Source: Escherichia coli (lineage in GTDB: Bacteria > Pseudomonadota > Gammaproteobacteria > Enterobacterales > Enterobacteriaceae). From it: a stretch of DNA of 64,000 nt. The notes under the pieces were generated by a model that was given only the letters and a program-made list of their open reading frames with translations, was not told the DNA's origin and did not search any database. Shown piece by piece: positions 12,357-31,061 of this stretch. Each line of letters opens with the position of its first letter. Position 1 is the stretch's first letter. The translations under genes were made by a program, and so were the position numbers. Location: NCBI RefSeq assembly GCF_030013205.1, contig NZ_CP122648.1; one strand, 5' to 3'.

Positions 12357-12432
12357 TGGTGGGTCGTGCAGGATTCGAACCTGCGACCAATTGATTAAAA
12401 GTCAACTGCTCTACCAACTGAGCTAACGACCC
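12357..12432 (-). tRNA. tRNA-Lys (anticodon UUU)
   Basis: Reverse complement matches recalled E. coli tRNA-Lys exactly, including encoded CCA. Confidence 0.9.
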
Positions 12433-12465
12433 CTTGCGGGATTATGCTGCTTTAATCATTCAGGA

Positions 12466-12541
12466 TGGTGGGTCGTGCAGGATTCGAACCTGCGACCAAT
12501 TGATTAAAAGTCAACTGCTCTACCAACTGAGCTAACGACCC
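12466..12541 (-). tRNA. tRNA-Lys (anticodon UUU)
   Basis: Identical 76-nt copy of the tRNA-Lys sequence. Confidence 0.9.
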
Positions 12542-12589
12542 ATACGGGTGTTACCTGAAAGATTTCTACTCGAAACCAATCTTTAAGAT

Positions 12590-12660
12590 TGGTGGGTCGT
12601 GCAGGATGACTCGCTTCGCTCGCCCTACGGGCCGTTGCTGGCGCAACGTTATCCTTCACG
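12590..12660 (-). repeat. tRNA-Lys 3'-end-derived remnant repeat (copy 1)
   Basis: First 18 nt (tggtgggtcgtgcaggat) are identical to the tRNA-Lys 3' end including CCA, then the sequence diverges into a segment with small palindromes (gttgc-gtca-gcaac, gccc-gaa-gggc when read on the - strand). Confidence 0.6.
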
Positions 12661-12687
12661 CTTAACATCTGAGTTTGATGTTAAAAC

Positions 12688-12763
12688 TGGTGGGTCGTGC
12701 AGGATTCGAACCTGCGACCAATTGATTAAAAGTCAACTGCTCTACCAACTGAGCTAACGACCC
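12688..12763 (-). tRNA. tRNA-Lys (anticodon UUU)
   Basis: Identical 76-nt copy of tRNA-Lys. Confidence 0.9.
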
Positions 12764-12765
12764 GG

Positions 12766-12841
12766 TGGTGGGTGATGACGGGATCGAACCGCCGACCCCC
12801 TCCTTGTAAGGGAGGTGCTCTCCCAGCTGAGCTAATCACCC
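12766..12841 (-). tRNA. tRNA-Val (anticodon UAC)
   Basis: Reverse complement matches recalled E. coli tRNA-Val(UAC); lies 2 nt from the adjacent tRNA-Lys. Confidence 0.9.
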
Positions 12842-12886
12842 GATACTACGCTGGATACTACAACTAACTAGGTTAGTGGTGGGTCG

Positions 12887-12957
12887 TGCAGGATGACTCG
12901 ACTTCGTCTCGCCCTTCGGGCCGTTGCTGACGCAACGTTATCCTTCACGTTTTACTA
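12887..12957 (-). repeat. tRNA-Lys 3'-end-derived remnant repeat (copy 2)
   Basis: Same structure as copy 1 with a few substitutions (tggtgggtcgtgcaggatgactcgacttcgtctcgcccttcgggccgttgctgacgcaacgttatccttcacg). Confidence 0.6.
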
Positions 12958-12976
12958 CCGCTTCCACCTTAGCGAT

Positions 12977-13052
12977 TGGTGGGTCGTGCAGGATTCGAAC
13001 CTGCGACCAATTGATTAAAAGTCAACTGCTCTACCAACTGAGCTAACGACCC
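12977..13052 (-). tRNA. lysT: tRNA-Lys (anticodon UUU), first gene of the operon
   Basis: Identical 76-nt tRNA-Lys sequence; promoter-like elements lie just upstream. Confidence 0.9.
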
Positions 13053-13216: not shown

Positions 13217-14008
13217 TTACATCGCGTTCAGACGTTTTTGCGCCTGTTTAGCGCCATCAGTACCAGGGTATTTACTGATAACCTGCTGGTATACGGCTTT
13301 CGCTTTTGCGGTGTCACCTTTGTCCTGCATGATGACGCCGACTTTAAACATCGCATCTGCAGCCTTCGGTGACTTCGGATAGTTTTTCACTACCGAAGCA
13401 AAATAATACGCAGCGTCATCTTTTTTACCCTTGTTGTAGTTTAACTGACCCAGCCAATAATTGGCGTTTGGCAGGTAAGTTGAATCAGGGTAATTTTTGA
13501 TGAAATTCTGAAATGCCACCATTGCGTCATCCTGGCGGGATTTATCCTGCACCAGCGCAATAGCTGCATTGTAATCCGTGTTTGCATCACCGCTTTTCAC
13601 CGGCGCGCCAGCATTCGCAGTACCAGCATCAGCTGTCGGCGTCGTTGATGCCGCCGCACCGCTTTGATCGCCGCTGGTTGATTGCGCCGCTGCACCACCG
13701 CTGCTGAGGCTATCGATCTGCAACAGGATCTGCTTTTGCCGCTCCATGACCTGATTCAGTTGATACTGATTTTCCTGAATCTGACCACGCAGGGAATCAA
13801 TATCGGATTGATTATCAGAGAGTTGTTGCTGGAGTTGGGTTAAAAGCTGGCTGTGAGCATTTGAAATACGCTCAAGTTGAGTGACGCGGTCTTCGACCGA
13901 GCCTGAGCCGACACTACTGATTGGTGCCTGAGCAAAAGCGGCCCAGGGGGCCGCTATACCAACCAGTAACGACAGACTCAATAGTTGATGTCTGAAGTTA
14001 CTGCTCAT
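13217..14008 (-). CDS. cpoB: Cell division coordinator CpoB (YbgF), TPR protein
   Basis: 263-aa ORF: signal peptide, Gln/Leu-rich coiled coil, C-terminal TPR repeats; last gene of the tol-pal cluster. Confidence 0.9.
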   Translation of the reverse strand: MSSNFRHQLLSLSLLVGIAAPWAAFAQAPISSVGSGSVEDRVTQLERISNAHSQLLTQLQQQLSDNQSDIDSLRGQIQENQYQLNQVMERQKQILLQIDSLSSGGAAAQSTSGDQSGAAASTTPTADAGTANAGAPVKSGDANTDYNAAIALVQDKSRQDDAMVAFQNFIKNYPDSTYLPNANYWLGQLNYNKGKKDDAAYYFASVVKNYPKSPKAADAMFKVGVIMQDKGDTAKAKAVYQQVISKYPGTDGAKQAQKRLNAM

Positions 14009-14017
14009 GCAATTCTC

Positions 14018-14563
<546 letters not shown>

Positions 14564-14573
14564 TTAATTATTA

Positions 14574-15866
14574 TCACAGATACGGCGACCAGGCAGGGAA
14601 TTTGACCTGTCCATCAGTTGCCGGAAGACGCGCTTTGAAACGCCCATCTGTAGAAACCAAATTCAGCACGGATCCCATCCCCTGAGAAGAGCTGTAGATT
14701 ACCATAGTGCCGTTAGGTGCCAGACTTGGCGTTTCATCCAGGAACGTGGACGACAGAACTTGTACGCCTCCCGTTGCCAGATCTTGTTTGGCAATGTGCT
14801 GCTGCCCACCATTGGAGCTGACCATTACCATAAATTTACCGTCGCTGCTGACATCCGCATCCTGGTTCTGCGAACCTTCCCAGGTAATACGTTGTGGCGC
14901 ACCGCCGTTGATATTCACTTTATAAACCTGTGGACGACCGGCCTGGTCAGAAGTAAATGCCAGGTTCTGGCTGTCCGGGAACCAGGTCGGTTCGGTATTG
15001 TTACTGCGACCATCCGTCACCTGGCGGATCTGACCAGAAGCCAAATCCATTACGTACAGGTTCAGACTACCGGTTTTCGACAAGGCGAATGCCAGTTTGC
15101 TGCCGTCTGGCGAGAATGCAGGTGCACCGTTGTGACGCGGGAATGAAGCCACCTGACGTACAGCGCCATTTGCCAGCGTTTGGATGACCAGCGCGGAACG
15201 ACCGCTTTCGAAGGTCACATAAGCCAGTTTAGAACCGTCTGGTGACCACGCCGGAGACATCAGCGGCTGCGGTGAACGGTGAACGACAAACTGGTTGTAA
15301 CCGTCATAGTCAGATACGCGCAGTTCATACGGGAACTGACCGCCGTTGGTCTGAACAACGTAGGCAATACGGGTACGGAACGCACCTTTAATGCCGGTCA
15401 GTTTTTCAAACACTTCATCACTGGCGGTATGACCAGCATAACGCAGCCACTGCTTGTTCACTTTGTACGAGTTCTGAGCAAGTACAGTACCCGGTGCGCC
15501 GCCAGTGTCAACAAGTTGATAAGCAACATTGTAAGAACCATCCGGATTCGGAGTGACCTGACCGACAACTACAGCGTCAATGCCCAGTGCGGACCATGCA
15601 GCTGGTTGTACTTCCTGCGCACTACCCGGCTGCTGTGGCAGACGAGCGCGATCTAACGGATTAAATTTACCGCTGTTACGCAAGTCGGCAGCAACGATGC
15701 CGCCAATATCTTCAGGTGCCGCACCAGGGCCCGCCCACTGGAAAGGAACAACTCCAATAGGACGACCGGAATCTACACCGCTGTCGATCACAATGCGGAC
15801 TTCAGCATGCAGAACTGATGCCCACAGTATGAGAAAACCAAATGCTACTCGTAATGCCTGCTTCAT
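14574..15866 (-). CDS. tolB: Tol-Pal system periplasmic protein TolB
   Basis: ORF 14574..15869 (MMKQALR...); beta-propeller protein matching TolB. Confidence 0.95.
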
Positions 15867-15998: not shown

Positions 15999-17264
15999 TT
16001 ACGGTTTGAAGTCCAATGGCGCGTTTTTGAACACTTCATATACTGCCTGGCTTGGTGGTTTCGGGATCTTCGCAAGTTTAGCTGCTGCCAACGCAGCCTG
16101 ACAAAGTGCGGGATCGCCACCTTCAGGTTTGATATCCAGTAACATACCATCGGGTGCCAGTTTTATGCGCAGCGTACAGGTTTTGCCTGCATAGGACGAT
16201 GCGTCGTAGAACTTACTTTCGATAGCAGATTTAATCTGCCCGGCATAGTTATTGATATCGGCCCCTGATGCGCCATTGTTTTTAGTATTACCACTCCCAG
16301 CAGGCGAAGCATTGTTCCCTTTCGCCCCTCCCCCCGTTTTCGGTGCATTCTTACCAGAGCTTAGCTCACCGAAAATATCATCTGCCTCTGCGGCAGCTTT
16401 TGCTGCAGCGGCTTTTTCAGCTGCTGCTTTTGCCGCTGCCGCTTTTTTGTCTGCGGCGGCTTTTTCTGCCGCTGCTTTTTTATCAGCTGCTGCCTTTTCA
16501 GCAGCCGCTTTTTCTGCTGCTTTTTTGTCGGCTGCAGCTTTCTCTGCTGCCGCTTTCTTATCAGCTGCAGCCTTTTCAGCAGCCGCTTTCTTCTCAGCTT
16601 CTGCCTTGGCTTTTTCAGCAGCTTCAGTTGCTGCTTTCTTTCTTGCTTCAGCTGCAGCTGCTTCTGCCGCTTCCGCTTTCTTCTTCAGTGCCGCCGCGGC
16701 TGCCTCGGCTTTTTTCTGCGCTTCGGCTGCGGCTTTGGCGGCTTCTGCTTCTGCTTTTTTCTTCGCGTCTGCAGCCGCTTTCTTCGCTGCTTCTTCCGCA
16801 GCTTTAGCATCCGCTTCGGCCTTCGCTTTAGCATCTGCCGCCGCTTTCGCTGCCGCTTCTTCCGCTTGCTTCTGCTTTAACTCGGCCTGTTTTGCGGCTT
16901 CTTCAGCCTGCTTTTTCTGTTCCTGAGCAGCTAACCGCTCTTTCTCAAGTTGCTTCAGGCGTTCCTGTTCAGCCGCTTGTTTCTCACGCAGTTCTTCAGC
17001 AGCCTGCTGTTCCTTCATCTTGCGCTGCTCATCAGAACGCTTCGCGCTTGATTCCTGGCTTTGCATGCGTTTGTACTGCTCAACTACCGCACCTGAATCA
17101 ACCATGACAGCGTCGATGGATGAACCACCGCCGCCTCCGGCTGAAGCTTCTATATTCTCATCGAACGAACTCCAGATCAGCGCCGCAAATAAGATGACAT
17201 GCAGCACTGCTGAAATAATTATCGCCCGCTTGAGCTTGTCGTTTTGTTCGGTTGCCTTTGACAC
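15999..17264 (-). CDS. tolA: Tol-Pal system protein TolA
   Basis: 421-aa ORF: N-terminal TM anchor, long Ala/Lys/Glu-rich helical domain II, C-terminal domain III. Confidence 0.9.
   Translation of the reverse strand: MSKATEQNDKLKRAIIISAVLHVILFAALIWSSFDENIEASAGGGGGSSIDAVMVDSGAVVEQYKRMQSQESSAKRSDEQRKMKEQQAAEELREKQAAEQERLKQLEKERLAAQEQKKQAEEAAKQAELKQKQAEEAAAKAAADAKAKAEADAKAAEEAAKKAAADAKKKAEAEAAKAAAEAQKKAEAAAAALKKKAEAAEAAAAEARKKAATEAAEKAKAEAEKKAAAEKAAADKKAAAEKAAADKKAAEKAAAEKAAADKKAAAEKAAADKKAAAAKAAAEKAAAAKAAAEADDIFGELSSGKNAPKTGGGAKGNNASPAGSGNTKNNGASGADINNYAGQIKSAIESKFYDASSYAGKTCTLRIKLAPDGMLLDIKPEGGDPALCQAALAAAKLAKIPKPPSQAVYEVFKNAPLDFKP
16380..16900 (-). repeat. Imperfect tandem repeats encoding the Ala/Lys/Glu-rich helical domain II of TolA
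   Basis: Repeated gctgc(t/c)gc... units on the + strand, translating to reiterated (E/K/D)-(K/A)-AAA motifs. Confidence 0.8.
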
Positions 17265-19297: not shown

Positions 19298-19410
19298 CAG
19301 ATGTCTTCTTGACCGGCTTTGCCTGATTCGACGTGCTCAAGCGCCAGCGCGGTGATTACCCCAAACGAACAGGCAAGAAGCGTTCCCAGAATCCATGCGA
19401 AATACCACAT
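19297..19410 (-). CDS. cydX: Cytochrome bd-I accessory small subunit CydX (37 aa)
   Basis: Hand-translated from the - strand: MWYFAWILGTLLACSFGVITALALEHVESGKAGQEDI*; below the ORF-track size cutoff; its stop overlaps the ybgE start codon by 1 nt. Confidence 0.85.
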   Translation of the reverse strand: MWYFAWILGTLLACSFGVITALALEHVESGKAGQEDI

Positions 19411-19424
19411 TTTTAGCTCCTTAC

Positions 19425-20564
19425 TTAGTACAGAGAGTGGGTGTTACGTTCAATATCTTCTTTGGTGATACGACCGAACATTTTCCAGTAACACCAGGCG
19501 GTGTAGAGCAGAATGATCGGTACCAGAACCACCGCAACCCAGGTCATGACGTTAAGTGTCAGCTGGCTGGAAGTTGCATCCCACATTGTCAGACTTGCGT
19601 TCATCATGGTGCTGGACGGCATCACAAACGGGAACATTGCGATACCGGCAGTCAGGATGATGCAGGCCAGCGTCAGGGAGGAGAACACAAACGCCCACGC
19701 GGCTTTATCCATACGTGCAGTCAGGATGGTCAGCAGCGGCAGAACCACACCCAGTGCCGGAATAGCCCACAGAATTGGCGTGTTGTTGAAGTTTACCAGC
19801 CATGCGCCAGCTTCACGAACCACTTCTTTATTCAGCGGGTTAGAGGCTGCGTAATGGTCCATTGTCGATTTCACGACATAACCATCGATACCGTACATCA
19901 CCCATACGCCAGCCAGTGCGAAGCAGACCAGTGTCACCAGTGCCGCCACCTGAGCCGTTGCACGGGTACGCAGGTGCAGTTCGCCCACGGTACGCATTTG
20001 CAGGTAAGTCGCGCCCTGAGTAATGATCATTCCTACGCTCACCACGCCAGCCAGCAGGCCGAACGGGTTAAGCAGCTGGAAGAAGTTACCGGTGTAGTAC
20101 AGACGCAGATATTCATCAACGTTGAACGGTACGCCCTGCAACAGGTTACCGAACGCCACACCAATCACCAGCGGCGGAACGAAGCTACCAATGAAGATGC
20201 CCCAGTCCCACATGTTACGCCAGCGGGTTTCTTCAATCTTGGAGCGGTAGTCAAAACCGACCGGACGGAAGAACAAAGATGCCAGCACGAGGATCATCGC
20301 CACATAGAAGCCGGAGAACGCAGCGGCATAGACCATCGGCCAGGCAGCAAAGAGTGCGCCGCCCGCGGTGATCAGCCAAACCTGGTTACCGTCCCAGTGT
20401 GGTGCAATGGAGTTAATCATAATTCGACGCTCGGTGTCGTTACGACCGAGGAAACGGGTGAGCATGCCCACCCCCATGTCGAAACCGTCAGTGACTGCAA
20501 AACCAATCAGCAGAACGCCAACCAGCAGCCACCAGATAAAACGCAATACTTCATAATCGATCAT
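19425..20564 (-). CDS. cydB: Cytochrome bd-I ubiquinol oxidase subunit II
   Basis: 379-aa polytopic membrane ORF matching CydB. Confidence 0.95.
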   Translation of the reverse strand: MIDYEVLRFIWWLLVGVLLIGFAVTDGFDMGVGMLTRFLGRNDTERRIMINSIAPHWDGNQVWLITAGGALFAAWPMVYAAAFSGFYVAMILVLASLFFRPVGFDYRSKIEETRWRNMWDWGIFIGSFVPPLVIGVAFGNLLQGVPFNVDEYLRLYYTGNFFQLLNPFGLLAGVVSVGMIITQGATYLQMRTVGELHLRTRATAQVAALVTLVCFALAGVWVMYGIDGYVVKSTMDHYAASNPLNKEVVREAGAWLVNFNNTPILWAIPALGVVLPLLTILTARMDKAAWAFVFSSLTLACIILTAGIAMFPFVMPSSTMMNASLTMWDATSSQLTLNVMTWVAVVLVPIILLYTAWCYWKMFGRITKEDIERNTHSLY

Positions 20565-20579
20565 TTGACGACTCCTGTC

Positions 20580-22148
20580 TTAGCGTGCCGGCTGAGTAGT
20601 CGTGGAAGACTGCTCAAAGTGATAGCGACCGGTTTTCAGGCTGCTTGGGCCGAGGCGTGCATACTTGAACATTAAGAACAATTCTGCCACCAGGAACAGG
20701 GTATACAGGCCGCAAATCAGCACCATTGAGAAGATGAGATCGCCTGCGGTCAGTGACGAGTTCGCCACAGCTGTCGGCAGCACTTCACCGATAGCCCACG
20801 GTTGGCGGCCATATTCAGCCACGAACCAGCCCGCTTCTACAGCAATCCACGGCAGCGGAATACCGTACAGCGCGGCGCGCAGCAGCCATTTTTTCTCGCC
20901 AATGCGGTTGCGGATGACACTCCAGAAAGAGAGCGCGATGATTGCCAGCAGCAGGAAGCCACACGCCACCATGATACGGAACGCGAAGTACAGCGGCGCT
21001 ACACGCGGAATGGAGTCTTTGGTTGCCTGTTGAATCTGCGCTTCAGTCGCATCCGCCACGTTTGGCGTATAGCGTTTCAGCAGCAGACCGTAACCGAGGT
21101 CTTTCTTCATGCTATTGAACTGGTCACGAACCGCCTGGTCGGTAGAACCAGAACGCAGTTGTTCGAGCAGAGAGTACGCCTTCATCCCGTTACGAATGCG
21201 TTCTTCATGCTGCACCATCAGCTCTTTCAGGCCGATAACCGGGGTATCCACGGAACGCGTTGCAATGATGCCCAGTGCGTAAGGGATCTGGATTGCAAAT
21301 TTGTTCGTCTCCTCTTCCTGATCAGGAATGCCGAACAGAGTAAAGGCAGCAGGTGCAGGTTGCGTTTCCCACTCGGCTTCAATAGCAGCCAGTTTGGTTT
21401 TCTGCACGTCGCCCATTTCGTAACCAGATTCATCACCCAGAACAATAACAGACAGAACGGCAGCCATACCGAAGCTGGCAGCGATAGCAAAGGAGCGTTT
21501 AGCGAAGGCGAAGTCACGACCTTTCAGCATATACCATGCGCTGATACCGAGGATGAACATCGCGCCAGTCACATAACCAGAGGCTACAGTGTGAACGAAT
21601 TTCACCTGAGCAACCGGGTTAAGCACCAGCTCGGAGAAGCTCACCATCTCCATACGCATAGTTTCAAAGTTGAAATCGGATGCGATTGGGTTTTGCATCC
21701 AGCCGTTCGCAACCAGAATCCACAGTGCGGACAGGTTTGAACCGAGCGCCACCAGCCAGGTGACACACATATGCTGAACTTTACCCAGACGATCCCAACC
21801 GAAGAAGAACAGACCTACAAAGGTGGATTCGAGGAAGAAGGCCATCAGACCTTCGATTGCCAGCGGCGCACCGAAGATATCCCCTACATAGTGGGAATAG
21901 TAAGACCAGTTAGTCCCGAACTGGAACTCCATGGTCAGACCGGTAGCCACACCCAGAGCGAAGTTGATACCAAACAACTTGCCCCAGAACTTGGTCATAT
22001 CTTTATAAATCTGTTTGCCGGAAAGGACGTAGACCGTTTCCATAATGGCCAGCAGGAACGCCATACCGAGCGTCAGTGGCACAAAAAGGAAGTGGTACAT
22101 CGCGGTCAAGGCAAACTGTAAGCGCGACAGTTCGACTATATCTAACAT
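20580..22148 (-). CDS. cydA: Cytochrome bd-I ubiquinol oxidase subunit I
   Basis: ORF 20580..22151 (MMLDIV...); matches CydA, start at the second Met. Confidence 0.95.
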
Positions 22149-22151
22149 CAT

Positions 22152-22950
22152 GACTCCTTGCTCATCGCATGAAGACTCCGAGAGTGAACCCCGTTAGAAA
22201 GGGTCACACGCATGCCCCAATACAAAATTATTTGCTCGCCTCTATCGTTGCCATTTCATCAAAAGAGGAAAAGACAATGATAAAAAAGTTACAAATATGT
22301 TAATGAATAAACCAAATTGATCCCGTAATTATATTACGCCGCAAAATCCTTACAATAAACAGGTTTTTATTGAGCAAATTTGCATTTTTCGACAGTGATC
22401 AATTTATAGCGAAATTGTCACGATCTCACCAATTTGATCTACGACAATTTATCGTGTTTTGCAGATTTTTTTCAAGAATTAAAAATTGATTTATATCAAA
22501 ACCAACCAAATATGTTAATTATGTATAAACCATAGATCATTGGTGATTTTATTGTTAATTTATTGTGAAATATTTATGCAACACAATTATTACAATGAAA
22601 AGGTATAGATAAAAAACCAGTGTTTTATTTAACAGAACCGCCTTATCCACTTTTTATAATACCAATTGATTAGATTAGCCAATTTGTTGCTATTTTACAT
22701 AACATATTTTTATCAAAGTTAATTGATTGTTGCGTTTATGAGCACCGGCCGTAAGCCCGTTATGTTATTGTTTCATTAGTAATAATCACTTAAATGTATC
22801 GATGAAACAGGTATGACTTAGCGGGAGTGATTGTTTCTGAGTGAACAGAGACCACTTTCGCCTGATAAATGAAAAATGAGCGATTTTTGCAAGTTAGTTT
22901 TTCTATAGCCGAGTACGCTCAGCGCCTCGCTTGATTACAATGAGGTTGCT
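22152..22950 (-). promoter_or_regulatory. Long AT-rich cydAB regulatory region
   Basis: About 800 bp AT-rich non-coding DNA upstream of cydA (a 60-bp sample at 22501-22560 has 14/60 G+C); contains FNR-like palindromes. Confidence 0.7.
22486..22499. promoter_or_regulatory. FNR-type binding site (perfect TTGAT-N4-ATCAA)
   Basis: ttgatttatatcaa matches the FNR consensus exactly; a second imperfect site ttgatctacgacaa at 22434-22447 lies 52 bp away. Confidence 0.5.
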
Positions 22951-22953
22951 GCT

Positions 22954-23898
22954 ATGAGTCCTGATAATATCAGTTCTGCTGTCAATCGCTTCTCAGGTTG
23001 GCCATCTAATGATCCTCTAAAAACAGATAAAGAATCAATGACATCACCCATGACTGTGCAGGTAATAAAGATGATTGCCGCCATCCTTGACCCACATCGG
23101 ATAGTCGTTGGAATCGATACACTTTATACAACGCAGCGCGAAACATTTACCTCAGAGAGTCAACAGCTCATTGAATCAGCATTGCAAACACTTCATGTGA
23201 TGAATTTAAATAACCTGGAAACAAATCTCGATGAGGAAGGTCACTATCTGGCTTTTGGATATAACGTTGACACTCCTGACAGAATAACCGTTTCTGCTTA
23301 TAATGAAAAAAAGCCTGGCTGCTATGGCCAATGTCTTTTAATACAGGATGACGAAACAGACTTATTTAACCTGATAAAAGTTAAAATTTTTGAAGCCAGA
23401 CATAATTATGTCGCTCAATTGATGAGCGATCCGGAATTTATGTTCAAATTTAGTTATAGCGCTCAACAAAATAGATTAGAACCTCATCTTCTGGTTCCCA
23501 CTTATTTCCCTCTAAAAACAAACGAACCGGTTACGCAAGAGGATGTACTGTTACTTTATCGTTTCTTTAAAATGGATGGTGATTTTAATATATTAACATC
23601 AGATGAATACATGAGCATCATGACACCTCTGATGAAGTGTGAGCGCAGCATCCACGACCACAACAGGTATGTGACGGGCAAAGATACCCTTCTTCTGGAC
23701 TATCCTCCTTCTGGTAACCAGATATATTTCCATATTTTTCCTGACGAATCAGCAACACTAGTCCTTTATTTTTCAAACAATGACATTGAATGTTTCGTCT
23801 TTGAAAGAGATATTCCGAGCCAGTATCGCTTTTTCAAAATGTTTACCAATCTGGCACTGGTTATTGATCAGTTAACCGATGCCAATCAAATACTTTAA
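22954..23898 (+). CDS. Hypothetical protein (314 aa), low-GC orphan, no recognisable family
   Basis: Uninterrupted ORF with GAGG RBS 8 nt upstream of the ATG; AT-rich codon usage (spot counts 25/60 and 18/60 G+C) unlike neighbouring core genes. Confidence 0.6.
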   Translation: MSPDNISSAVNRFSGWPSNDPLKTDKESMTSPMTVQVIKMIAAILDPHRIVVGIDTLYTTQRETFTSESQQLIESALQTLHVMNLNNLETNLDEEGHYLAFGYNVDTPDRITVSAYNEKKPGCYGQCLLIQDDETDLFNLIKVKIFEARHNYVAQLMSDPEFMFKFSYSAQQNRLEPHLLVPTYFPLKTNEPVTQEDVLLLYRFFKMDGDFNILTSDEYMSIMTPLMKCERSIHDHNRYVTGKDTLLLDYPPSGNQIYFHIFPDESATLVLYFSNNDIECFVFERDIPSQYRFFKMFTNLALVIDQLTDANQIL

Positions 23899-23978
23899 TT
23901 TTTATATATTCCCTGTGGCAAATATTGCTAAACAATGCCCGGGGATTAATTTTTATTACTCACGGAAAGATTTAAATA

Positions 23979-24401
23979 ATGATCCCATCTCAAATCTCTT
24001 TCAACACCCTTCCTGTCAATGCAACATACGCTTCAGAGACAACAGTTGACACACAAAAATTCTCTGACATCCTCTACTCAGCGGGGTGTTCCCTAAAGGA
24101 TCTGGCTTATCTGAGCAGATGTCTGGCATCAATACATCCGACTATCGCCAAAAACATTTATGAAACAGAAAATCTCAGCGATCAAAAATTACTACATATT
24201 GATTGCCGTAGTACAAATGAAATCAAGATAAATATCTTTTTTGGTCAACAACGAGAAGGATTAATTGAAATTAGTTCTGACACAGTCATTTTTTCGATAC
24301 TGTCTTCATTGATTGACTCCACCATTTCTAAATTTCAACACCAAAACCCCGTTAACGGTTCTGTAAATCCTGACCTATTGTATGAGGATTATACTGATTA
24401 A
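23979..24401 (+). CDS. Hypothetical protein (140 aa), low-GC orphan, no recognisable family
   Basis: ORF 80 bp downstream of the 314-aa ORF on the same strand, similar composition; polar Ser/Thr/Ile/Asn/Pro-rich N-terminus. Confidence 0.5.
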   Translation: MIPSQISFNTLPVNATYASETTVDTQKFSDILYSAGCSLKDLAYLSRCLASIHPTIAKNIYETENLSDQKLLHIDCRSTNEIKINIFFGQQREGLIEISSDTVIFSILSSLIDSTISKFQHQNPVNGSVNPDLLYEDYTD

Positions 24402-24948
24402 ATCCCTCCTGTCGCGAAAAATGGCCTGCGTTATTGCCAGACGTAATAAAACTTTTGATTAACGTTTCTCGTACTGGTAGCACCTTCATGTACTTTTCTT
24501 TTTTACGAAAAATCAAAAGAGCTAACAAAGGTCATAATTCGCATGAATCATTAATTATTTGTTATTTTCAACATTATTTTTACATTAAGCAGAGATGAAT
24601 TGCTGTGAAATTCGACTTAACTTTTATGAAATGCATTTACTCATGGCTAAAGCCACGTCACAAAAATGCAAATTAGAAGTTGATCACAATTATCTCAATA
24701 CATCAAATCAAGTTAATTTTAAAAATTTAACATTCATGACATCAGTTGACATAACACACTGAATTAAAATGAGAATTTGAAAACACACTTTAAACAATCA
24801 TTTCCCGAAAGACATTTTGAAAATAGATCAATTGCAACATTACGGTCAGATAAAGACACTCCTGTGATATTAAACCTGTGCCGTTATGAACGGCCATAAA
24901 TACGACGTGTGTAACTTATTTTACTCTCTGTCTTACAAAGGATTACCC
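24402..24948 (+). promoter_or_regulatory. AT-rich leader / probable promoter region of the glutamate mutase operon
   Basis: 547 bp of AT-rich non-coding DNA directly upstream of the first operon gene; no ORF of 60 aa or more. Confidence 0.4.
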
Positions 24949-25398
24949 ATGAAGAAAGCAACACTTGTGATTGGCGTTATTGGCGCGGACTGCCATGCAG
25001 TAGGCAATAAAGTTCTGGACCGCGTTTTTAGCAACCATGGCTTCAGAGTCATTAATCTGGGCGTAATGGTCAGCCAGGACGAATATATTGATGCGGCCAT
25101 TGAAACTGGCGCTGACGCGATTGTCGTCTCCTCTATCTATGGGCATGGCGATATCGATTGTCTGGGCATGCGCGAACGCTGCATTGAGCGTGGGCTGGGT
25201 AACATCCTGCTCTATGTGGGCGGTAACCTGGTGGTCGGAAAACATGACTTCGCTGACGTGGAAACCAAGTTCAAAGAGATGGGATTTGATCGCGTCTTTT
25301 CCCCAAGTCATGACTTAGAAGATGTTTGTCAGCTGATGGCCCACGATATCAACCAACGTCATGACGTTGATACTCGCATTCTTGAAGAGGCAATCTGA
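24949..25398 (+). CDS. Glutamate mutase sigma (S) subunit, B12-binding (methylaspartate mutase small subunit)
   Basis: Start chosen at [21 protein letters not shown] (AAGGA RBS upstream); DxHxxG cobalamin-binding motif; aligns by eye with recalled Clostridium GlmS/MutS. Confidence 0.85.
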
Positions 25399-26786
25399 TG
25401 CAAATCGTCTCTGTCGATATTGGTTCGACGTGGACCAAAGCAGCCCTCTTCACCCGGGAGGGGGACGCGTTAACGTTGGTTAACCACGTTCTGACCCCAA
25501 CCACCACCCATCATCTGGCGAAGGGGTTTTTCTCCAGCCTGGACCAGGTGTTAAACGTAGATGATGCCCTCCCCCTGTTAAACAGTGGTGAGGTTGCATT
25601 GAAGTATTCCTCCTCTGCCAAAGGTGGGCTGGCGGTTGCCGCAATGGGATTGGTGCCTTCTATCACCCTGGAAACCGCGAAAGTAACCGCTCACTCTGCG
25701 GGTGCTAAAATTGCGCAATATTACGCCTACAAGCTGAACCGCCGTGATATCCAGGCACTGGAAGAAACGCAGCCCGATATTCTCTTGTTCACCGGCGGCA
25801 CCGATGGCGGAGAAGAAAGCTACGGACTGAATAACGCCCGTGTGTTGGCAGAATCCAAACTCGACTGCGCCATTATTTATGCCGGAAACCGGGATATTCA
25901 GGACGAGGTGCAGGAGGTCCTCGGGCATAAAGACCTGACCATCGTCGACAACGTTCTGCCCGATCTTGACCATCCGAACCCTTTAGCCGCACGCCAGGCT
26001 ATTTGCGACATATTCCTTAAACGCATCGTTAAAGGGAAAGGGCTGGATGTCATTGTTGATAAAACAGGCGAAGAACCAATGCCGACACCATGGACGGTCT
26101 TTGAACTGGTTAAGGCAATCAGTAACGTCGATCACAGCTGGAAAGAGTTCATGCTGATCGACATGGGCGGCGCAACCACCGATGTTTATTCCGCCTGTGC
26201 CAACACGCTCTCGCCCGACACCGTTCTACACGGCGTACCGGAACCCTTCGTGAAACGGACGGTGGAAGGCGATCTGGGAATGCGCGTCTCGGCAATGGTG
26301 GTTGGTGAAAGTGCGAAAGAGTTAGTCAATGTGAATTTTGCTCAGCAACCCGCACAGCTGGACGCTTTTTATCATTACCTCCGCCATCTAGTCGCTCATC
26401 CCGACTACTTACCCGCGAATGCAGAAGAAAAATATTTCGATACCGTCCTGGCCGGAGTGTGTGTGGGTTATGCCACCGAAAGACATGCGGGCACCAAAAA
26501 AGAGGTCTGCACCTGCGTCGGCAATGTCGATTTACAGATGGGACGTGATCTGACAACCGTGCGTAAAGTCGTGGGTTCCGGCGGATGGCTCTCGCGTGCC
26601 AGTCAGTTCGATATGCATCACTGGTTGAAATACCGCGAGTTAAACGACGACGGTAAACGCATTCTCTTACCGACCGAATTTGAATATTACCGCGATTCCC
26701 GGGGGCTATTACCACTGCTGGCAAACGTCGCCAGAGTCGATCCGCTGGCCGCCGCGCGCACCAGTATTCAATGCTTAACCCTATAA
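25398..26786 (+). CDS. Glutamate mutase-associated protein GlmL/MutL-like
   Basis: 462-aa ORF lying between the S and E subunit genes, the same order as in the clostridial operon; start overlaps the upstream stop. Confidence 0.7.
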   Translation: MQIVSVDIGSTWTKAALFTREGDALTLVNHVLTPTTTHHLAKGFFSSLDQVLNVDDALPLLNSGEVALKYSSSAKGGLAVAAMGLVPSITLETAKVTAHSAGAKIAQYYAYKLNRRDIQALEETQPDILLFTGGTDGGEESYGLNNARVLAESKLDCAIIYAGNRDIQDEVQEVLGHKDLTIVDNVLPDLDHPNPLAARQAICDIFLKRIVKGKGLDVIVDKTGEEPMPTPWTVFELVKAISNVDHSWKEFMLIDMGGATTDVYSACANTLSPDTVLHGVPEPFVKRTVEGDLGMRVSAMVVGESAKELVNVNFAQQPAQLDAFYHYLRHLVAHPDYLPANAEEKYFDTVLAGVCVGYATERHAGTKKEVCTCVGNVDLQMGRDLTTVRKVVGSGGWLSRASQFDMHHWLKYRELNDDGKRILLPTEFEYYRDSRGLLPLLANVARVDPLAAARTSIQCLTL

Positions 26787-26804
26787 CAATTAAGGCTGCA
26801 ATCA

Positions 26805-28250
26805 ATGGAACTTCGAAATAAGAAATTAACCCATGACGAATTCATGACCGAGCGGCAACAGGTACTGAAAACCTGGGAAACCGGCAAGGATGTTGAAAAC
26901 TTTGAAGATGGCGTTAAATACCAACAAACCATCCCTGAGCATAAACGCTTCTCTCTTGCGCTGCTGAAAGCAGACAAGGAAGGTAAAACCCTTAGCCAAC
27001 CGCGCGCAGGTGTGGCGCTGATGGACGAACACATCGAACTACTGAAAACACTACAAGAAGAGTGCGATCTGCTGCCGAGCACTATCGATGCATATACCCG
27101 TCTGAATCGGTACGAAGAAGCGGCTGTAGGGATTAAAAAATCCATCGAAGCCGGAACCTCTAAACTGAACGGTTTGCCGGTAGTTAACCATGGCGTCGCA
27201 GCTTGCCGTCGCCTCACCGAAGCCCTGCAAAAACCGCTACAGATCCGCCACGGCACGCCAGATGCGCGTCTGCTGGCTGAAATCTCGATGTCCAGCGGCT
27301 TTACCAGTTACGAAGGCGGCGGCATTTCCTACAACATTCCGTATGCCAAACGCGTAACGCTGGAAAAATCGATCCGCGACTGGCAGTACTGCGACCGTTT
27401 AATGGGGATGTATGAAGAACACGGGATCCGCATCAACCGCGAACCGTTTGGCCCACTAACGGGTACGCTGATCCCGCCGTTTATCTCGCACTCTATCGCG
27501 ATCATCGAAGGCTTGCTGGCGCTGGAACAGGGTGTGAAATCTATCACCGTTGGTTATGGACAGGTCGGCAGCCTGACGCAGGATGTTGCGGCGATCCAGT
27601 CTCTGCGTGAACTTGCACACGAATATTTTCAGAGCTATGGCTATACCGACTATGAATTAAGTACCGTGTTTCACCAGTGGATGGGCGGCTTTCCGGAAGA
27701 CGAATCGAAAGCGTTCGCTATTATCTCCTGGGGCGCAGCCGTCGCGGGGATGTCTGGTGCCACCAAAGTCATCACCAAAAGTCCGCACGAAGCCTGGGGT
27801 ATCCCGACTGCCGCTGCCAACATTCAGGGGCTGAAAGCCTCCCGCCAGATGCTCAACATGGTCAACGAGCAGAAATTCCCGCCGTGCCCTGCGGTTGAAC
27901 TGGAAATTGAACTGATTAAGAGCGAGGTTCGCGCAGTACTGAATAAAGTGTTCGAACTGGGTAATGGTGATATTGCGCGCGGTACGGTGCTGGCATTTGA
28001 AGCGGGCGTACTGGATGTGCCGTTTGCACCAGCCGCGTGTAACGCGGGCAAAATTCTTCCGGTCCGTGACAACACCGGCGCGATACGCGTACTGGAAGCC
28101 GGAGCCGTTCCATTGCCAAAAGATATTCTCGACCTCCACCACGATTACGTTGCTGAACGCGCACGCTTTGAAGGACGCCAACCGACATTCCAGATGGTTG
28201 TAGATGACATCAATGCTGTATCCCACAGTAAATTAATAGGAAGACCATAA
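26805..28250 (+). CDS. Glutamate mutase epsilon (E) subunit (methylaspartate mutase large subunit)
   Basis: 481-aa ORF, size and position consistent with GlmE/MutE; TIM-barrel-type sequence. Confidence 0.8.
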   Translation: MELRNKKLTHDEFMTERQQVLKTWETGKDVENFEDGVKYQQTIPEHKRFSLALLKADKEGKTLSQPRAGVALMDEHIELLKTLQEECDLLPSTIDAYTRLNRYEEAAVGIKKSIEAGTSKLNGLPVVNHGVAACRRLTEALQKPLQIRHGTPDARLLAEISMSSGFTSYEGGGISYNIPYAKRVTLEKSIRDWQYCDRLMGMYEEHGIRINREPFGPLTGTLIPPFISHSIAIIEGLLALEQGVKSITVGYGQVGSLTQDVAAIQSLRELAHEYFQSYGYTDYELSTVFHQWMGGFPEDESKAFAIISWGAAVAGMSGATKVITKSPHEAWGIPTAAANIQGLKASRQMLNMVNEQKFPPCPAVELEIELIKSEVRAVLNKVFELGNGDIARGTVLAFEAGVLDVPFAPAACNAGKILPVRDNTGAIRVLEAGAVPLPKDILDLHHDYVAERARFEGRQPTFQMVVDDINAVSHSKLIGRP

Positions 28251-29491
28251 TGAAAATAAAACAGGCCCTGTTCACCGCTGGCTACTCCTCATTCTATTTC
28301 GATGACCAGCAGGCGATAAAAAACGGAGCGGGTCATGACGGCTTTTTTTATACCGGGGAGCCAGTAACACAGGGGTTTAACGCCGTACGTCAGGCCGGGG
28401 AGTGCGTATCGGTACAGTTGATTCTGGAAAACGGCGCGGTCGCCGTAGGTGACTGTGCTGCCGTACAGTATTCCGGGGCAGGTGGTCGCGATCCACTGTT
28501 CCTCGCGGAGCACTTTATTCCGTTCCTCAACGACCATATCAAGCCATTACTGGTAGGCCGCGATGTGGATACTTTCCTGCCGAATGCCCGTTTCTTCGAC
28601 AAATTGCGTATTGACGGCAACTTGCTGCATACCGCCGTGCGCTACGGATTATCACAGGCGCTGCTTGATGCTACCGCGCTGGCAACCGGCCGTCTGAAAA
28701 CTGAAGTGGTCTGTGATGAATGGCAGTTGCCACGCGTGGCGGAATCCATTCCATTATTTGGTCAGAGCGGCGACGATCGATATATCGCCGTCGATAAGAT
28801 GATCCTTAAGGGCATCGACGTGCTGCCCCATGCACTGATTAATAACGTCGAAGAGAAACTGGGCTTTAAAGGTGAAAAACTGCGCGAATATGTCCGCTGG
28901 CTGTCGGATCGTATTCTGAGCAAGCGCACCAGCGCACGCTACCACCCTACCCTGCACATCGATGTATACGGCACTATCGGTCTGATCTTCGATATGGATC
29001 CGCTTCGCTGTGCGCAATACATCGCCAGCCTGGAAAAAGAAGCGCAAGGCCTGCCGCTCTACATTGAAGGTCCGGTCGATGCCGGTAACAAGCCCGATCA
29101 AATTCGCCTGCTGACCGCGATTACCAAAGAGCTGACGCGCCTCGGTTCCGGCGTGAAACTAGTGGCCGATGAATGGTGTAACACCTACCAGGATATTGTT
29201 GATTTCACCGATGCCGCCAGTTGCCACATGGTGCAAATCAAAACCCCGGATCTGGGCAGTATTCACAACATCGTCAATGCAGTTCTTTATTGCAACAGCC
29301 ACAGCATGGAAGCGTACCAGGGCGGCACCTGCAATGAAACTGATGTCAGTGCCCGCACCTGTGTCCACGTCGCCCTTGCCGCTCGCCCCATGCGTATGCT
29401 GGTAAAACCAGGGATGGGCTTTGACGAAGGCCTCGATATCGTCTTCAACGAAATGAATCGTACTATCGCGCTGTTGCAGGCTAAGGATTAA
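28250..29491 (+). CDS. 3-Methylaspartate ammonia-lyase
   Basis: 413-aa ORF (enolase superfamily size), immediately downstream of and overlapping the E subunit gene (TAATG). Confidence 0.8.
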   Translation: MKIKQALFTAGYSSFYFDDQQAIKNGAGHDGFFYTGEPVTQGFNAVRQAGECVSVQLILENGAVAVGDCAAVQYSGAGGRDPLFLAEHFIPFLNDHIKPLLVGRDVDTFLPNARFFDKLRIDGNLLHTAVRYGLSQALLDATALATGRLKTEVVCDEWQLPRVAESIPLFGQSGDDRYIAVDKMILKGIDVLPHALINNVEEKLGFKGEKLREYVRWLSDRILSKRTSARYHPTLHIDVYGTIGLIFDMDPLRCAQYIASLEKEAQGLPLYIEGPVDAGNKPDQIRLLTAITKELTRLGSGVKLVADEWCNTYQDIVDFTDAASCHMVQIKTPDLGSIHNIVNAVLYCNSHSMEAYQGGTCNETDVSARTCVHVALAARPMRMLVKPGMGFDEGLDIVFNEMNRTIALLQAKD

Positions 29492-29494
29492 CAA

Positions 29495-30865
29495 ATGGCT
29501 CGTTCTTTTAAAGTCTTATCGCCTACGGCAATCCTCGGGTATGGATTCCCGGAGGAGAGCTTCCGCAAAGCGATGGCAGAATCGCCCGATCTGATCGCCG
29601 TTGATGCTGGCTCTTCCGATCCTGGCCCCCACTACCTCGGGGCGGGCAAACCGTTTACCGATCGCGCAGGGGTCAAGCGCGATCTGCGCTATATGATCAC
29701 CGCAGGCGTGCAAAATAATATACCGGTGGTGATCGGAACGGCCGGCGGTTCTGGTGCCGCTCCACACCTGGAGTGGTGCCGAGAAATAATTCATGAGATT
29801 GCCCGGGAAGAGCACCTCTCGTTCTCGATGGCGCTGATCCCGGCAGACGTTGACAAAGCCATCGTCCACCAGGCGCTGGATAACGGCAAAATCACGGCGC
29901 TGGATTTTGTCCCGCCGTTAACCCACGACGCGATTGACGAAAGTACGTATATCGTCGCGCAAATGGGCATCGAACCCTTCCAGCAGGCGCTGAAAGAAGG
30001 CGCGCAAGTGGTGCTGGGCGGGCGCGCTTACGACCCGGCCTGCTTTGCTGCGCTACCGATCATGCAAGGCTTTGATGAAGGTCTGGCGCTGCATTGTGGG
30101 AAAATCCTTGAATGCGCGGCAATCGCCGCAACGCCCGGCTCAGGCTCTGACTGTGCGATGGGCATCATTGATGACAACGGCTTTACGCTGAAGACATTTA
30201 ATCCGAAGCGTAAATTTACCGAAACGTCAGCAGCTGCACACACACTGTATGAGAAATCCGATCCCTACTTCCTGCCAGGACCTGGCGGCGTGTTGAACCT
30301 GAAAAGCTGCACATTTAAAGCGGTCAATGACGGCGAAGTGTACGTCAGCGGTTCTAAGCATGAAGAAACGCCGTATTCCCTGAAACTGGAAGGTGCGCGA
30401 CGGGTGGGCTTCCGCTGTCTGACCATCGCCGGAACGCGCGACCCGATCATGATCGCCGGGATCGATAAAATCATCGATGAAGTCAAAACCAGCGTTTCGC
30501 GTAACCTGTCGCTCGACGATGACAGCATTCACATCAATTTCCACCTGTACGGCAAAAACGGGGTGATGGGCGACCATGAACCGATGCAAACTGCCGGGCA
30601 TGAGCTGGGGATTGTCCTTGATGTAGTTGCACCGACCCAGGAAATTGCCAACAGCGTTTGCTCGCTGGTGCGCTCTACCATGCTGCACTACGGCTATGAA
30701 AACCGCATCGCTACCGCAGGTAATCTGGCGTTCCCGTTCTCCCCTTCTGATATTCAGGGCGGGCCGGTATACGAATTTTCCATATATCACCTGATTGAAG
30801 CCAACGACGCTCTGCGTTTTGATTTCCATATTGAACAGGTGACGCCAGAAGGAGTTCAGGCATGA
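29495..30865 (+). CDS. DUF1446 (AtuA-like) family protein, function unknown
   Basis: 456-aa ORF 3 nt after the lyase stop; family assignment from memory of this size class and its usual pairing with a small DUF4387 partner. Confidence 0.55.
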   Translation: MARSFKVLSPTAILGYGFPEESFRKAMAESPDLIAVDAGSSDPGPHYLGAGKPFTDRAGVKRDLRYMITAGVQNNIPVVIGTAGGSGAAPHLEWCREIIHEIAREEHLSFSMALIPADVDKAIVHQALDNGKITALDFVPPLTHDAIDESTYIVAQMGIEPFQQALKEGAQVVLGGRAYDPACFAALPIMQGFDEGLALHCGKILECAAIAATPGSGSDCAMGIIDDNGFTLKTFNPKRKFTETSAAAHTLYEKSDPYFLPGPGGVLNLKSCTFKAVNDGEVYVSGSKHEETPYSLKLEGARRVGFRCLTIAGTRDPIMIAGIDKIIDEVKTSVSRNLSLDDDSIHINFHLYGKNGVMGDHEPMQTAGHELGIVLDVVAPTQEIANSVCSLVRSTMLHYGYENRIATAGNLAFPFSPSDIQGGPVYEFSIYHLIEANDALRFDFHIEQVTPEGVQA

Positions 30866-31061
30866 AACAGTCAATTGTCTCACTGGCGCAAGTCATTCGT
30901 TCGAAAAATGCCGGACCTTACGAACTGGTTTTAGATATTTTATTTAAAACCAAAGAAAACTATGAGCGAGTCAAATCATCAGGGCAATTAACCCCAGAAC
31001 TGATTGGGTGATGCTGCCAACTTACTGATTTAGTGTATGATGGTGTTTTTGAGGTGCTCCA

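Follow-up and report, generated by a model that had tools for sequence, protein, structure and literature searches.

The alanine/lysine/glutamate-rich repeat tract of tolA domain II in an Escherichia coli genome

The tolA locus

The window considered here, a 64,000-nucleotide stretch of an E. coli genome, contains an open reading frame at 15999-17264 (minus strand) that is identified from its sequence as E. coli tolA. Its product scores well above the cut-offs of both NCBIfam TolA equivalog models, NF007065 (554 bits against 213) and TIGR02794 (308.4 bits against 59.45), carries the TolA C-terminal domain of Pfam (PF06519) at residues 325-419 (130.9 bits) and is 100% identical to the K-12 protein WP_000030637.1 across all 421 residues. 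The solved structures 1TOL, 1S62, 2X9A and 3QDP match residues 292-421 of this protein, and PDB entries 9K49 and 9DDM contain TolA chains at full length. The tolA DNA differs from that of K-12 at 16 sites, all of them third codon positions and all synonymous, with a pS (0.055) similar to that of the neighbouring genes (0.039). The locus, ybgC-tolQ-tolR-tolA-tolB-pal-cpoB, is colinear with the annotated K-12 order; each gene aligns gap-free and the open reading frames have the expected sizes. RefSeq annotates tolA alone at this position in every genome listed, and an Rfam scan at gathering thresholds gave no match within the gene. The features of the gene and its product are as follows.

15999-17264, minus strand: tolA coding sequence, GTG start, 421 amino acids plus stop (ORF list, NCBIfam, K-12 alignment)
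16002-16334, minus strand: domain III, residues 311-421, globular, binding TolB, colicin and phage g3p (PF06519, solved structures)
16326-16427, minus strand: CpoB (YbgF) binding segment as reported, residues 280-313 (PMC8928145, PMC3477136)
16335-17123, minus strand: domain II, residues 48-310, long α-helical periplasm-spanning stalk (composition, AF2, literature)
17124-17264, minus strand: domain I, residues 1-47, inner-membrane anchor helix (translation, AF2, literature boundary)
16380-16900, minus strand: flagged stretch within domain II, rich in Ala, Lys and Glu(Asp), residues 122-295 (composition)

The boundary of domain I follows Levengood 1991, as cited in PMC3477136. Within this domain residues 3-34 are helical in the AF2 prediction, and the SHLS motor-binding motif, with positions as given in PMC8928145 (S18, H22, L29 and S33; window 17166-17213), is present and invariant in 11 of 11 alleles. 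Domain II is composed of 40% Ala, 19% Lys and 15% Glu, and residues 122-295 are richer still in alanine (Ala 53%, Lys 23%, Glu 14%, Asp 5%). The first-pass annotation had assigned this stretch to domain II of TolA, a placement borne out by the equivalog matches, the identity with K-12 and the gene order. The tract is thus almost certainly the Ala/Lys/Glu(Asp)-rich part of TolA domain II, in the modal 13-unit, K-12-type allele, and no observation speaks against this identification.

Extent and significance of the tandem repeat

The tract and its 13 units have already been published, as have its variation between strains, its instability through recombination and the phenotypes that it affects (PMC3477136); in MG1655, Zhou, Michiels and Aertsen (2012) described 13 imperfect repeats of 15 or 18 bp. 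In the window, the flagged stretch resolves into the following parts.

16386-16592, minus strand: core tandem-repeat tract, 13 imperfect 15/18-nt units, residues 225-293 (unit parse, Tandem Repeats Finder (TRF))
16436-16594, minus strand: two copies of a 78-nt (26-residue, five-unit) block (best TRF row)
16593-16900, minus strand: degenerate 5' part, residues 122-224, Ala/Lys/Glu-rich (TRF, charge pattern)

Parsed unit by unit, the core tract follows the pattern K1-2 A2-4 (E/D/A) and forms a regular series of five or six residues, with super-periods of 11 and 26 residues. TRF reports periods of 15, 18, 33 and 78 nt at 16387-16607. The best row, at 16436-16594, has a period of 78 nt, 2.0 copies, 87% matches and a score of 248, and weaker rows, scoring 32-68, lie at 16706-16877. 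Across the entire 64-kb window, the tolA array is the sole tandem repeat with a score of at least 60.

One alternative is that there is no true tandem repeat here, merely the low-complexity composition of an Ala/Lys/Glu-rich helix. Shuffling of the 521-nt flagged stretch argues strongly against this: the score of 248 compares with 45.8 ± 18.3 (maximum 108) in 200 dinucleotide shuffles and with 69.5 ± 20.7 (maximum 159) when codon order is shuffled, 0 of 200 such shuffles reaching 248. The core tract alone gives the same result (245 against 62 ± 23, equalled by 0 of 300 codon-order shuffles). For 16593-16900, however, an explanation by composition is essentially right, as the best score there is 68, which 52 of 300 codon-order shuffles equal, and no significant tandem periodicity is present in the DNA. 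In addition, the likeness of the units at the DNA level does not exceed what the protein dictates: a test for homogenisation of the units (concerted evolution) was not significant, with 17 of 200 protein-keeping synonymous-codon shuffles reaching the observed score. The units are therefore old, their silent sites having diverged, with the exception of the 78-nt block. Against composition as the whole explanation stand the regular five- or six-residue parse with its two super-periods and the natural alleles, described below, which vary by whole units and include perfect tandem duplications of 78, 33 and 6 nt. For the core tract, the shuffle controls and these natural duplications together refute it, and as an account of the repeat in general it is very improbable. 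The long imperfect tandem repeats that had been described over 16380-16900 are accordingly upheld for 16386-16592, or to 16607 on the TRF rows, and not for 16593-16900. Since significance is confined to the core tract, a true tandem array makes up about 40% of the flagged span, and its 5' ~60% is compositionally biased Ala/Lys/Glu coding sequence.

The possibility that silent sites of the repeat have diverged to excess was also considered and rejected. The pS of the flagged part is 0.082, and that of the neighbouring genes 0.039 (Fisher p 0.035). This difference does not hold up: comparison with the remainder of tolA gives a p of 0.12, and the pS of ybgE by itself is 0.119.

Length variation among E. 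coli strains

In the published survey of 234 isolates, the number of units ranged from 8 to 16, with 13 units in 66% (PMC3477136). A comparable picture was obtained from 5,425 complete E. coli genomes, which were sampled systematically in two sets, of 39 and of 60 rows. The reference tolA length was present in 26 of 39 and 40 of 60 sampled genomes, about two thirds in each case. The remaining genes differ from the reference by -81 to +78 nt, every difference being a multiple of 3, so that sampled genes span 1185-1344 nt (394-447 aa). A regular-expression parse assigns 11-18 units to these alleles; the 18-unit allele exceeds the published range, with the qualification that the electrophoretic sizing of that study may not count units in the same way. 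The polymorphism in TolA length claimed at first pass is thus confirmed and agrees with the published work. The comparison with reference strains that had been suggested places the window allele at 421 aa and 13 units, the same as K-12 and of the modal length.

In a protein alignment of 11 alleles, indels of 5, 11, 15, 26 and 27 residues occur, all of them, among the sampled alleles, within residues ~169-246 (window ~16530-16760). The larger differences cluster in one zone:

16530-16640, minus strand: zone of larger natural length differences, residues ~209-246 (11-allele protein alignment, DNA indel mapping)

An extra 6-nt duplication maps at ~16757 at the DNA level. Residues 242-421 are invariant in the alignment, and repeat units 11-13, which fall within the segment reported in PMC8928145 and PMC3477136 to bind CpoB (YbgF), are invariant across all sampled alleles. 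The insertions of +78, +33 and +6 nt are 100% identical to the neighbouring copy, and in one natural allele the 78-nt block of 16436-16594 is the site of a perfect 78-nt tandem duplication. As five-unit deletions predominate among experimental contractions (PMC3477136), this block is the likely substrate of the commonest five-unit deletions and duplications, a reading that links the natural duplication to the experimental deletions by inference. Strains therefore differ in copy number by whole units and in frame, as is characteristic of a variable-number repeat. Two genomes of O157:H7 differ by 30 residues in TolA (394 against 424 aa), and the 436-aa protein WP_000030659.1 occurs in isolates from both Sweden and Laos.

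Two candidate anomalies were set aside. An apparent larger rearrangement in two hits, in which the tolA match fell in 'two places' with 83% coverage, proved to be the ordinary 436-aa allele. A divergent allele (21% coverage, 78% identity) is annotated as tolA 'frameshifted; internal stop', and its more than 80 small indels are limited to nt 340-1018, which points to a failure of assembly or polishing in the repeat.

Antisense open reading frames

The strand opposite tolA is open in all three frames across the repeat region.

16252-16926, plus strand: antisense ORF of 224 aa, TTG start, stop-free run 16249-16923; judged spurious
16343-16807, plus strand: antisense ORF of 154 aa, GTG start, stop-free run 16286-16804; spurious
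16365-16877, plus strand: third antisense frame, codon-aligned, 171 stop-free codons, absent from the ORF list; spurious

The first-pass annotation had listed the first two frames as spurious products of the repeat. Both are present as listed, and composition, codon usage and the absence of an ATG or a family match agree that they are spurious; their cause, on the other hand, is not repetition as such. The frames are open because the reverse complement of GCN, AAR, GAR and GAY almost never gives a stop codon, and they are thus a by-product of this restricted codon set.

That the 224-aa frame, rich in Ala, Phe, Ser and Leu, might be a genuine overlapping gene within tolA was nevertheless weighed. 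It is the longest stop-free run in the region (225 codons) and is open in 11 of 11 alleles; antisense overlapping genes have been claimed in the E. coli literature, and all 12 of its differences from K-12 are synonymous in its own frame. This last observation carries no information, however, because its third positions coincide with those of tolA (GCN is read as GCN on both strands), so that synonymy is forced by shared wobble positions and silent variation in tolA is silent in the antisense frame too; substitutions speak neither for this frame nor against it. In this frame, Ala codons of tolA read as Ala, Lys as Phe or Leu, and Glu or Asp as Ser. The two frames lacking this geometry behave otherwise, with 7 of 7 differences from K-12 non-synonymous in 16343-16807 and 10 of 10 in 16365-16877, and for these two the substitution test is decisive. 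The open run of 16252-16926 is also no longer than the composition of tolA predicts: the frame is wholly open in 52% of tolA codon-order shuffles, and its run follows tolA allele length exactly (198-251 codons over the 11 alleles). Both listed ORFs begin with TTG or GTG and contain no in-frame ATG; no Shine-Dalgarno-like sequence lies in the 20 nt upstream of their starts, and neither has a family match in Pfam or NCBIfam, RefSeq annotating tolA alone. The codon log-likelihood per codon is 0.10 for 16252-16926 and -0.01 for 16343-16807, against 0.66 for tolA and a minimum of 0.15 among the 16 long ORFs taken as real genes that served as reference. A consensus scan places ten terminator-like hairpins on the plus strand of 16252-16926, where 2.5 would be expected over both strands. 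In addition, antisense ORFs as long or longer lie opposite non-repetitive genes of the window, for example 19395-20675 (plus strand, 426 aa) opposite cydB. None of the eight papers on overlapping genes that ranked highest refers to tolA. A genuine antisense gene is therefore extremely unlikely, and it is just as improbable that 16252-16926 is translated into a hydrophobic Ala/Phe/Ser-rich peptide whose length co-varies with that of TolA.

Helical structure and charge pattern of domain II

Domain II has been described as a helical hairpin of ~220 Å (PMC8928145), built from Lys1-2-Ala3-4-(Glu/Asp) repeats, and a structured domain II is required (PMC10666116). The unit parse and the AF2 prediction agree with this γ-proteobacterial type of domain II, which is defined by α-helical repeats of that form. 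AF2 predicts helices at residues 60-200 and 204-302, separated by a break at 201-203, with pLDDT mostly 78-89 in these blocks. As the prediction was run from a single sequence without an alignment (mean pLDDT 70.6, pTM 0.25), the model supports the helicity of domain II and not the packing of its two helices. The charge pattern points in the same direction. Pairs of K/R at position i with E/D at i+4 number 24 in the flagged stretch, against 7.5 in shuffles (z 7.6), and no enrichment of Lys with Glu/Asp is seen at spacings of i+3 or i+5. In the degenerate part (16593-16900), 13 such pairs are present against 4.5, with 0 of 5000 shuffles equalling this number.

The core tract is an intragenic tandem repeat, and the 5' remainder of the flagged stretch is a degenerate form of the same theme. 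The flagged stretch as a whole is predicted to form a long α-helix in which Lys(i) and Glu/Asp(i+4) would be placed for helix-stabilising salt bridges. In the predicted hairpin, it would account for the greater part of the second arm and for the distal half of the first. The stalk would span the periplasm, carrying domain III from the TolQR motor of the inner membrane, which is driven by protons, to TolB-Pal at the outer membrane. Force transduction by TolA to TolB-Pal is dependent on the PMF (PMC10666116, PMC8928145), and the part that domain II plays in transmitting force, as a structured stalk, is the subject of current work (PMC10666116, PMC8928145, PMC12204202).

Origin and significance of the length variation

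Because the units have similar DNA, whole units may be gained or lost in frame through misaligned recombination or through slippage during replication, which would lead to the length variation observed among strains. Why the tract varies is a separate question. Zhou et al. proposed that it is an adaptive contingency locus, whose copy number switches fast and is under selection because it adjusts traits of the envelope, among them tolerance of bile salts, entry of phage fd and the response to acid and osmotic stress (PMC3477136). In support of this model, contraction, which is RecA-dependent, has a frequency of ~7e-5, and among engineered variants of 2-39 units deoxycholate tolerance spans four orders of magnitude and susceptibility to fd differs (PMC3477136). 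The 30-residue difference between the two O157:H7 genomes and the in-frame nature of every length variant are also consistent with it, as are those insertions that are perfect, and hence recent, duplications. Against it, a single length is common to about two thirds of the sampled genomes; the finding of WP_000030659.1 in both Sweden and Laos suggests that alleles are mostly inherited stably; and the silent-site divergence of the units is at odds with turnover or homogenisation at a very high rate. Furthermore, the published experiments selected contractions only (PMC3477136). An alternative scenario is near-neutral drift in length close to an optimum under stabilising selection. On this balance of evidence, the contingency model is possible but rather unlikely.

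Whichever model applies, the observation itself is real but ordinary: the window holds the standard, commonest tolA allele, already known and of low interest as a discovery, so nothing unusual is expected of Tol-Pal function. Two practical consequences follow for genome analysis. The repeat tract can break assemblies and annotation, as in the one 'complete' genome whose garbled tolA is flagged as a pseudogene. Alanine-rich repeats will also mislead gene callers and those screens for antisense genes that use synonymous conservation, because one antisense frame has the wobble positions of the real gene.

Comparison with related alleles and systems

The closest relative is K-12 tolA (Levengood et al. 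1991; Zhou et al. 2012), which matches the window in operon context and in its 13 units of 15/18 nt and differs in its DNA at the 16 synonymous sites alone. The alleles encoding WP_000030680.1 (394 aa, O157:H7), WP_000030659.1 (436 aa) and WP_073527434.1 (447 aa) share domains I and III and units 4-13 with the window, but such length alleles have 11-18 units in place of 13. O157-type alleles, unlike that of the window, are without the ATEAAEKAKAEAE spacer ahead of the tract.

Beyond TolA, the tract resembles alanine-based helical peptides with Glu and Lys at (i, i+4), engineered (EAAAK)n rigid linkers and the natural ER/K single α-helix domains, in its Ala-rich sequence, in its opposite charges placed four residues apart and in its predicted helicity. 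Compared with ER/K domains, the TolA tract is far richer in alanine and less charged, and its pairs are oriented from Lys(i) to Glu/Asp(i+4). An ER/K domain is also a lone helix, whereas TolA domain II has been modelled in the literature as a two-helix hairpin. Domain II of TonB, with its Glu-Pro and Lys-Pro repeats, provides a second parallel. It is a polyproline-II helix where that of TolA is α-helical, sequence similarity between the two is absent, and the repeat tract of the window contains no proline. In function it is the analogous, repeat-built and periplasm-spanning centre of a paralogous force transducer, and the two central domains can in part replace one another (PMC10666116).

The tolA gene and its locus

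The flagged stretch lies within a single gene:

15999-17264 (-): tolA ORF, 421 aa, GTG start

Every testable defining feature of TolA is present in this product. The two NCBIfam TolA equivalogs are matched at 554 and 308 bits (cut-offs 213 and 59), and residues 325-419 correspond to the Pfam TolA C-terminal domain. Among solved structures it matches PDB 9K49 and 9DDM, whose TolA chains are full-length, and 1TOL, 1S62, 2X9A and 3QDP, which cover domain III. The motor-binding SHLS residues (PMC8928145) are found at S18, H22, L29 and S33. The window is oriented opposite to the K-12 map, running from the gal genes and a tRNA array through cpoB-pal-tolB-tolA-tolR-tolQ-ybgC to cyd, and each gene of the tol-pal locus is colinear with its counterpart in the K-12 annotation. 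The comparison with a reference strain proposed in the first-pass annotation gives a protein of 421 aa and 13 units, 100% identical to K-12 TolA by alignment. All 16 DNA differences from K-12 tolA are third-codon and synonymous; pS is 0.055 for tolA and 0.039 for the pooled neighbouring genes.

Two further elements lie alongside these genes:

13979-14117 (-): Rfam CpoB/ybgF intergenic RNA thermometer between pal and cpoB (RF02782, 142 bits)
12357-13052 (-): tRNA array downstream of cpoB, with four tRNA-Lys (UUU) genes, one tRNA-Val (UAC) gene and two RtT-like elements

The window's five tRNA genes compare with seven (five Lys, two Val) at this place in the K-12 record, and thus a second tandem array beside tol-pal is also copy-number variable between strains.

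Extent and structure of the repeat

Positions 16380-16900 encode domain II residues 122-295, composed of 53% Ala, 23% Lys, 14% Glu and 5% Asp. Tandem Repeats Finder (TRF) places overlapping arrays with periods of 15, 18, 33 and 78 nt at 16387-16607, the highest scoring of which (period 78, 2.0 copies, 87% matches) reaches 248, and weak rows at 16706-16877. Apart from the tolA array, no tandem repeat in the 64-kb window scores 60 or more.

Best TRF scores and shuffled controls
Sequence; observed; control; result
Flagged 521 nt; 248; 200 dinucleotide shuffles; 45.8 +/- 18.3, max 108
Flagged 521 nt; 248; 200 codon-order shuffles; 69.5 +/- 20.7, 0/200 reach 248
16386-16592; 245; 300 codon-order shuffles; 0/300 reach 245
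16593-16901; 68; 300 codon-order shuffles; 52/300 reach 68

Since 16386-16592 exceeds its shuffles whereas 16593-16901 does not, the repeat signal comes from the former. The long imperfect tandem repeats initially described across the whole span are therefore upheld for 16386-16592 but not for 16593-16901: the true array occupies ~40% of the flagged span and the rest is biased Ala/Lys/Glu coding sequence.

Residues 225-293 divide exactly into 13 units of five or six residues (15 or 18 nt):

Units 1-7: KKAAAE, KAAAD, KKAAAE, KAAAD, KKAAE, KAAAE, KAAAD
Units 8-13: KKAAAE, KAAAD, KKAAAA, KAAAE, KAAAA, KAAAE

Lys autocorrelation reveals super-periods of 11 and 26 residues, the counterparts of the 33 and 78 nt TRF periods. 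As 17 of 200 protein-preserving synonymous-codon shuffles reach the observed DNA score, the DNA repeat is essentially a shadow of the protein repeat. The units are diverged at silent sites, and each unit of the tolA repeat has been reported to be unique in sequence (PMC3477136).

Open frames on the antisense strand

The two antisense ORFs noted previously, 16252-16926 (+) and 16343-16807 (+), are both present in the ORF list, and all three + strand frames lack stops across the tract:

16249-16923 (+): 225 codons, frame of ORF 16252-16926
16286-16804 (+): 173 codons, frame of ORF 16343-16807
16365-16877 (+): 171 codons, third frame

Their earlier dismissal as spurious is borne out, although the repeat itself is not the cause. 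Residues 122-295 are encoded almost only by GCN, AAR, GAR and GAY, and the frames are open because the reverse complements of these codons give no stop codons; the frame of 16252-16926 remains fully open in 52% of codon-order shuffles. Across ten further alleles, open-run length rises and falls with tolA length, the longest run measuring 198 to 251 codons. Neither ORF contains an ATG, has an evident ribosome-binding site or matches a Pfam or NCBIfam family. Codon log-likelihoods per codon are 0.10, -0.01 and -0.11 for the three frames, compared with 0.66 for tolA and at least 0.15 for 16 long ORFs of the window taken as real genes. All differences from K-12 are non-synonymous in the frame of 16343-16807 (7/7) and in the third frame (10/10); all 12 are synonymous in the frame of 16252-16926 because its third positions coincide with those of tolA, making this count uninformative. 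Translation of ORF 16252-16926, the one novel reading left to weigh, is considered very unlikely.

Long antisense ORFs are common in the window even without repeats:

19395-20675 (+): 426 aa, overlapping cydB (-)
13985-14605 (+): 206 aa, overlapping pal (-)
44565-46262 (+): 565 aa, overlapping a 592-aa ORF at 44466-46244 (-)

Their - strand partners are longer or equal in length. With comparable or longer antisense ORFs opposite ordinary genes, those of tolA are not exceptional.

A consensus scan found 11 terminator-like hairpins (a GC-rich stem with a T run after it) on both strands, compared with 2.5 +/- 1.7 in shuffles, and ten + strand examples lie inside the repeat at 16382-16750. They arise because GCNGCN is self-complementary and is followed by TTT, the complement of Lys codons. 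Judged by sequence, the + strand hairpins could in principle stop antisense transcription.

Length variation among strains

Present in 5,425 of 5,426 complete E. coli genomes, tolA was sampled for length in rows picked at even steps down the match ranking (39 and 60 rows). The gene measures 1266 nt in 26 of 39 full-length rows, and across 16280-16960 the length equals the reference in 40 of 60 rows; this share of about two thirds agrees with the 13 units published for 66% of 234 isolates (PMC3477136). The remaining third are shorter (-81, -51, -45, -42, -33, -15 nt) or longer (+6, +9, +15, +24, +30, +33, +45, +78 nt), always by multiples of three, confirming the proposed length polymorphism. 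Among 11 aligned alleles (394-447 aa; 11-18 units by a regular-expression parse), length differences are confined to residues ~169-246 and residues 242-421 are unchanged.

At the DNA level each of the +78, +33 and +6 nt insertions shows 100% identity with the adjacent copy, and the segment lost in one 33-nt deletion is 82% identical to the one beside it. Changes of this kind are what slippage, or misaligned recombination, between units would give. This putative origin agrees with experimentally measured RecA-dependent contractions, in which 5-unit deletions predominate (PMC3477136). The longest, most similar internal repeat is a 78-nt (5-unit) block at 16436-16594, which we infer to be the preferred substrate of unit changes.

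One retrieved locus, L012 (NZ_AP024561.1, strain NIPH17_0036, a 'complete' genome), has tolA at 897-2038 annotated as 'frameshifted; internal stop'. Its small indels (over 80) and its 68 mismatches all fall within nt 340-1018, the domain II region, between clean flanks; the defect is most likely a repeat-caused assembly or polishing failure rather than a real pseudogene.

Helical character and role of domain II

The flagged stretch contains 24 Lys/Arg(i) to Glu/Asp(i+4) pairs where shuffles give 7.5 (z 7.6), and no enrichment over shuffles is seen there at i+3 or i+5. In the non-repetitive residues 122-224 there are 13 such i+4 pairs against 4.5, a count reached by 0/5000 shuffles. The i/i+4 spacing places opposite charges on adjacent α-helix turns, an arrangement familiar from alanine-based E/K helical peptides. 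Run without an alignment, AlphaFold2 predicts helices at 60-200 and 204-302 separated by a break at 201-203. Within both, pLDDT is mostly 78-89; as overall pTM is only 0.25, the model does not establish their packing. The assignment of the flagged region to the helical spacer domain of TolA holds, residues 122-295 lying in domain II.

Domain II is described as an extended helical hairpin of ~220 Å (PMC8928145) that brings domain III from the TolQR motor across to TolB-Pal, and outer-membrane stabilisation reportedly depends on its being structured (PMC8928145; PMC10666116). CpoB binding is reported for residues 280-313 (PMC8928145; PMC3477136), which take in units 11-13.

Strain background

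Beyond cydA, and ahead of the long ORFs that follow, is a ~15-kb block with genes for GlmL, methylaspartate mutase subunit E, methylaspartate ammonia-lyase, a DctA/GltP-type transporter, class I fumarate hydratase, cob(I)yrinic acid a,c-diamide adenosyltransferase and a LysR-type regulator:

~22200-37300: block resembling a methylaspartate-pathway glutamate-catabolism island
~30997-31784: IS1-family element within it; numerous chromosomes and plasmids carry matching IS1 transposase copies

Of 5,426 complete E. coli genomes, only 1,116 carry at least 80% of the block. The best database matches for 15999-17264 and 22200-37300 are porcine E. coli isolates, including CFSAN018748 (100% identity across tolA) and ETEC4079 (100% over 15.1 kb of the block), and the source of the window is probably a closely related strain.

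Relation to the published tolA repeat

The earlier interpretation is supported, and three points refine it: how far the true repeat extends, that codon composition accounts for the open antisense frames, and that a third such frame exists. The feature itself is not new. Levengood et al. (1991) and Zhou et al. (2012, two papers) have described this intragenic tandem repeat of tolA, and the window carries its commonest allele.
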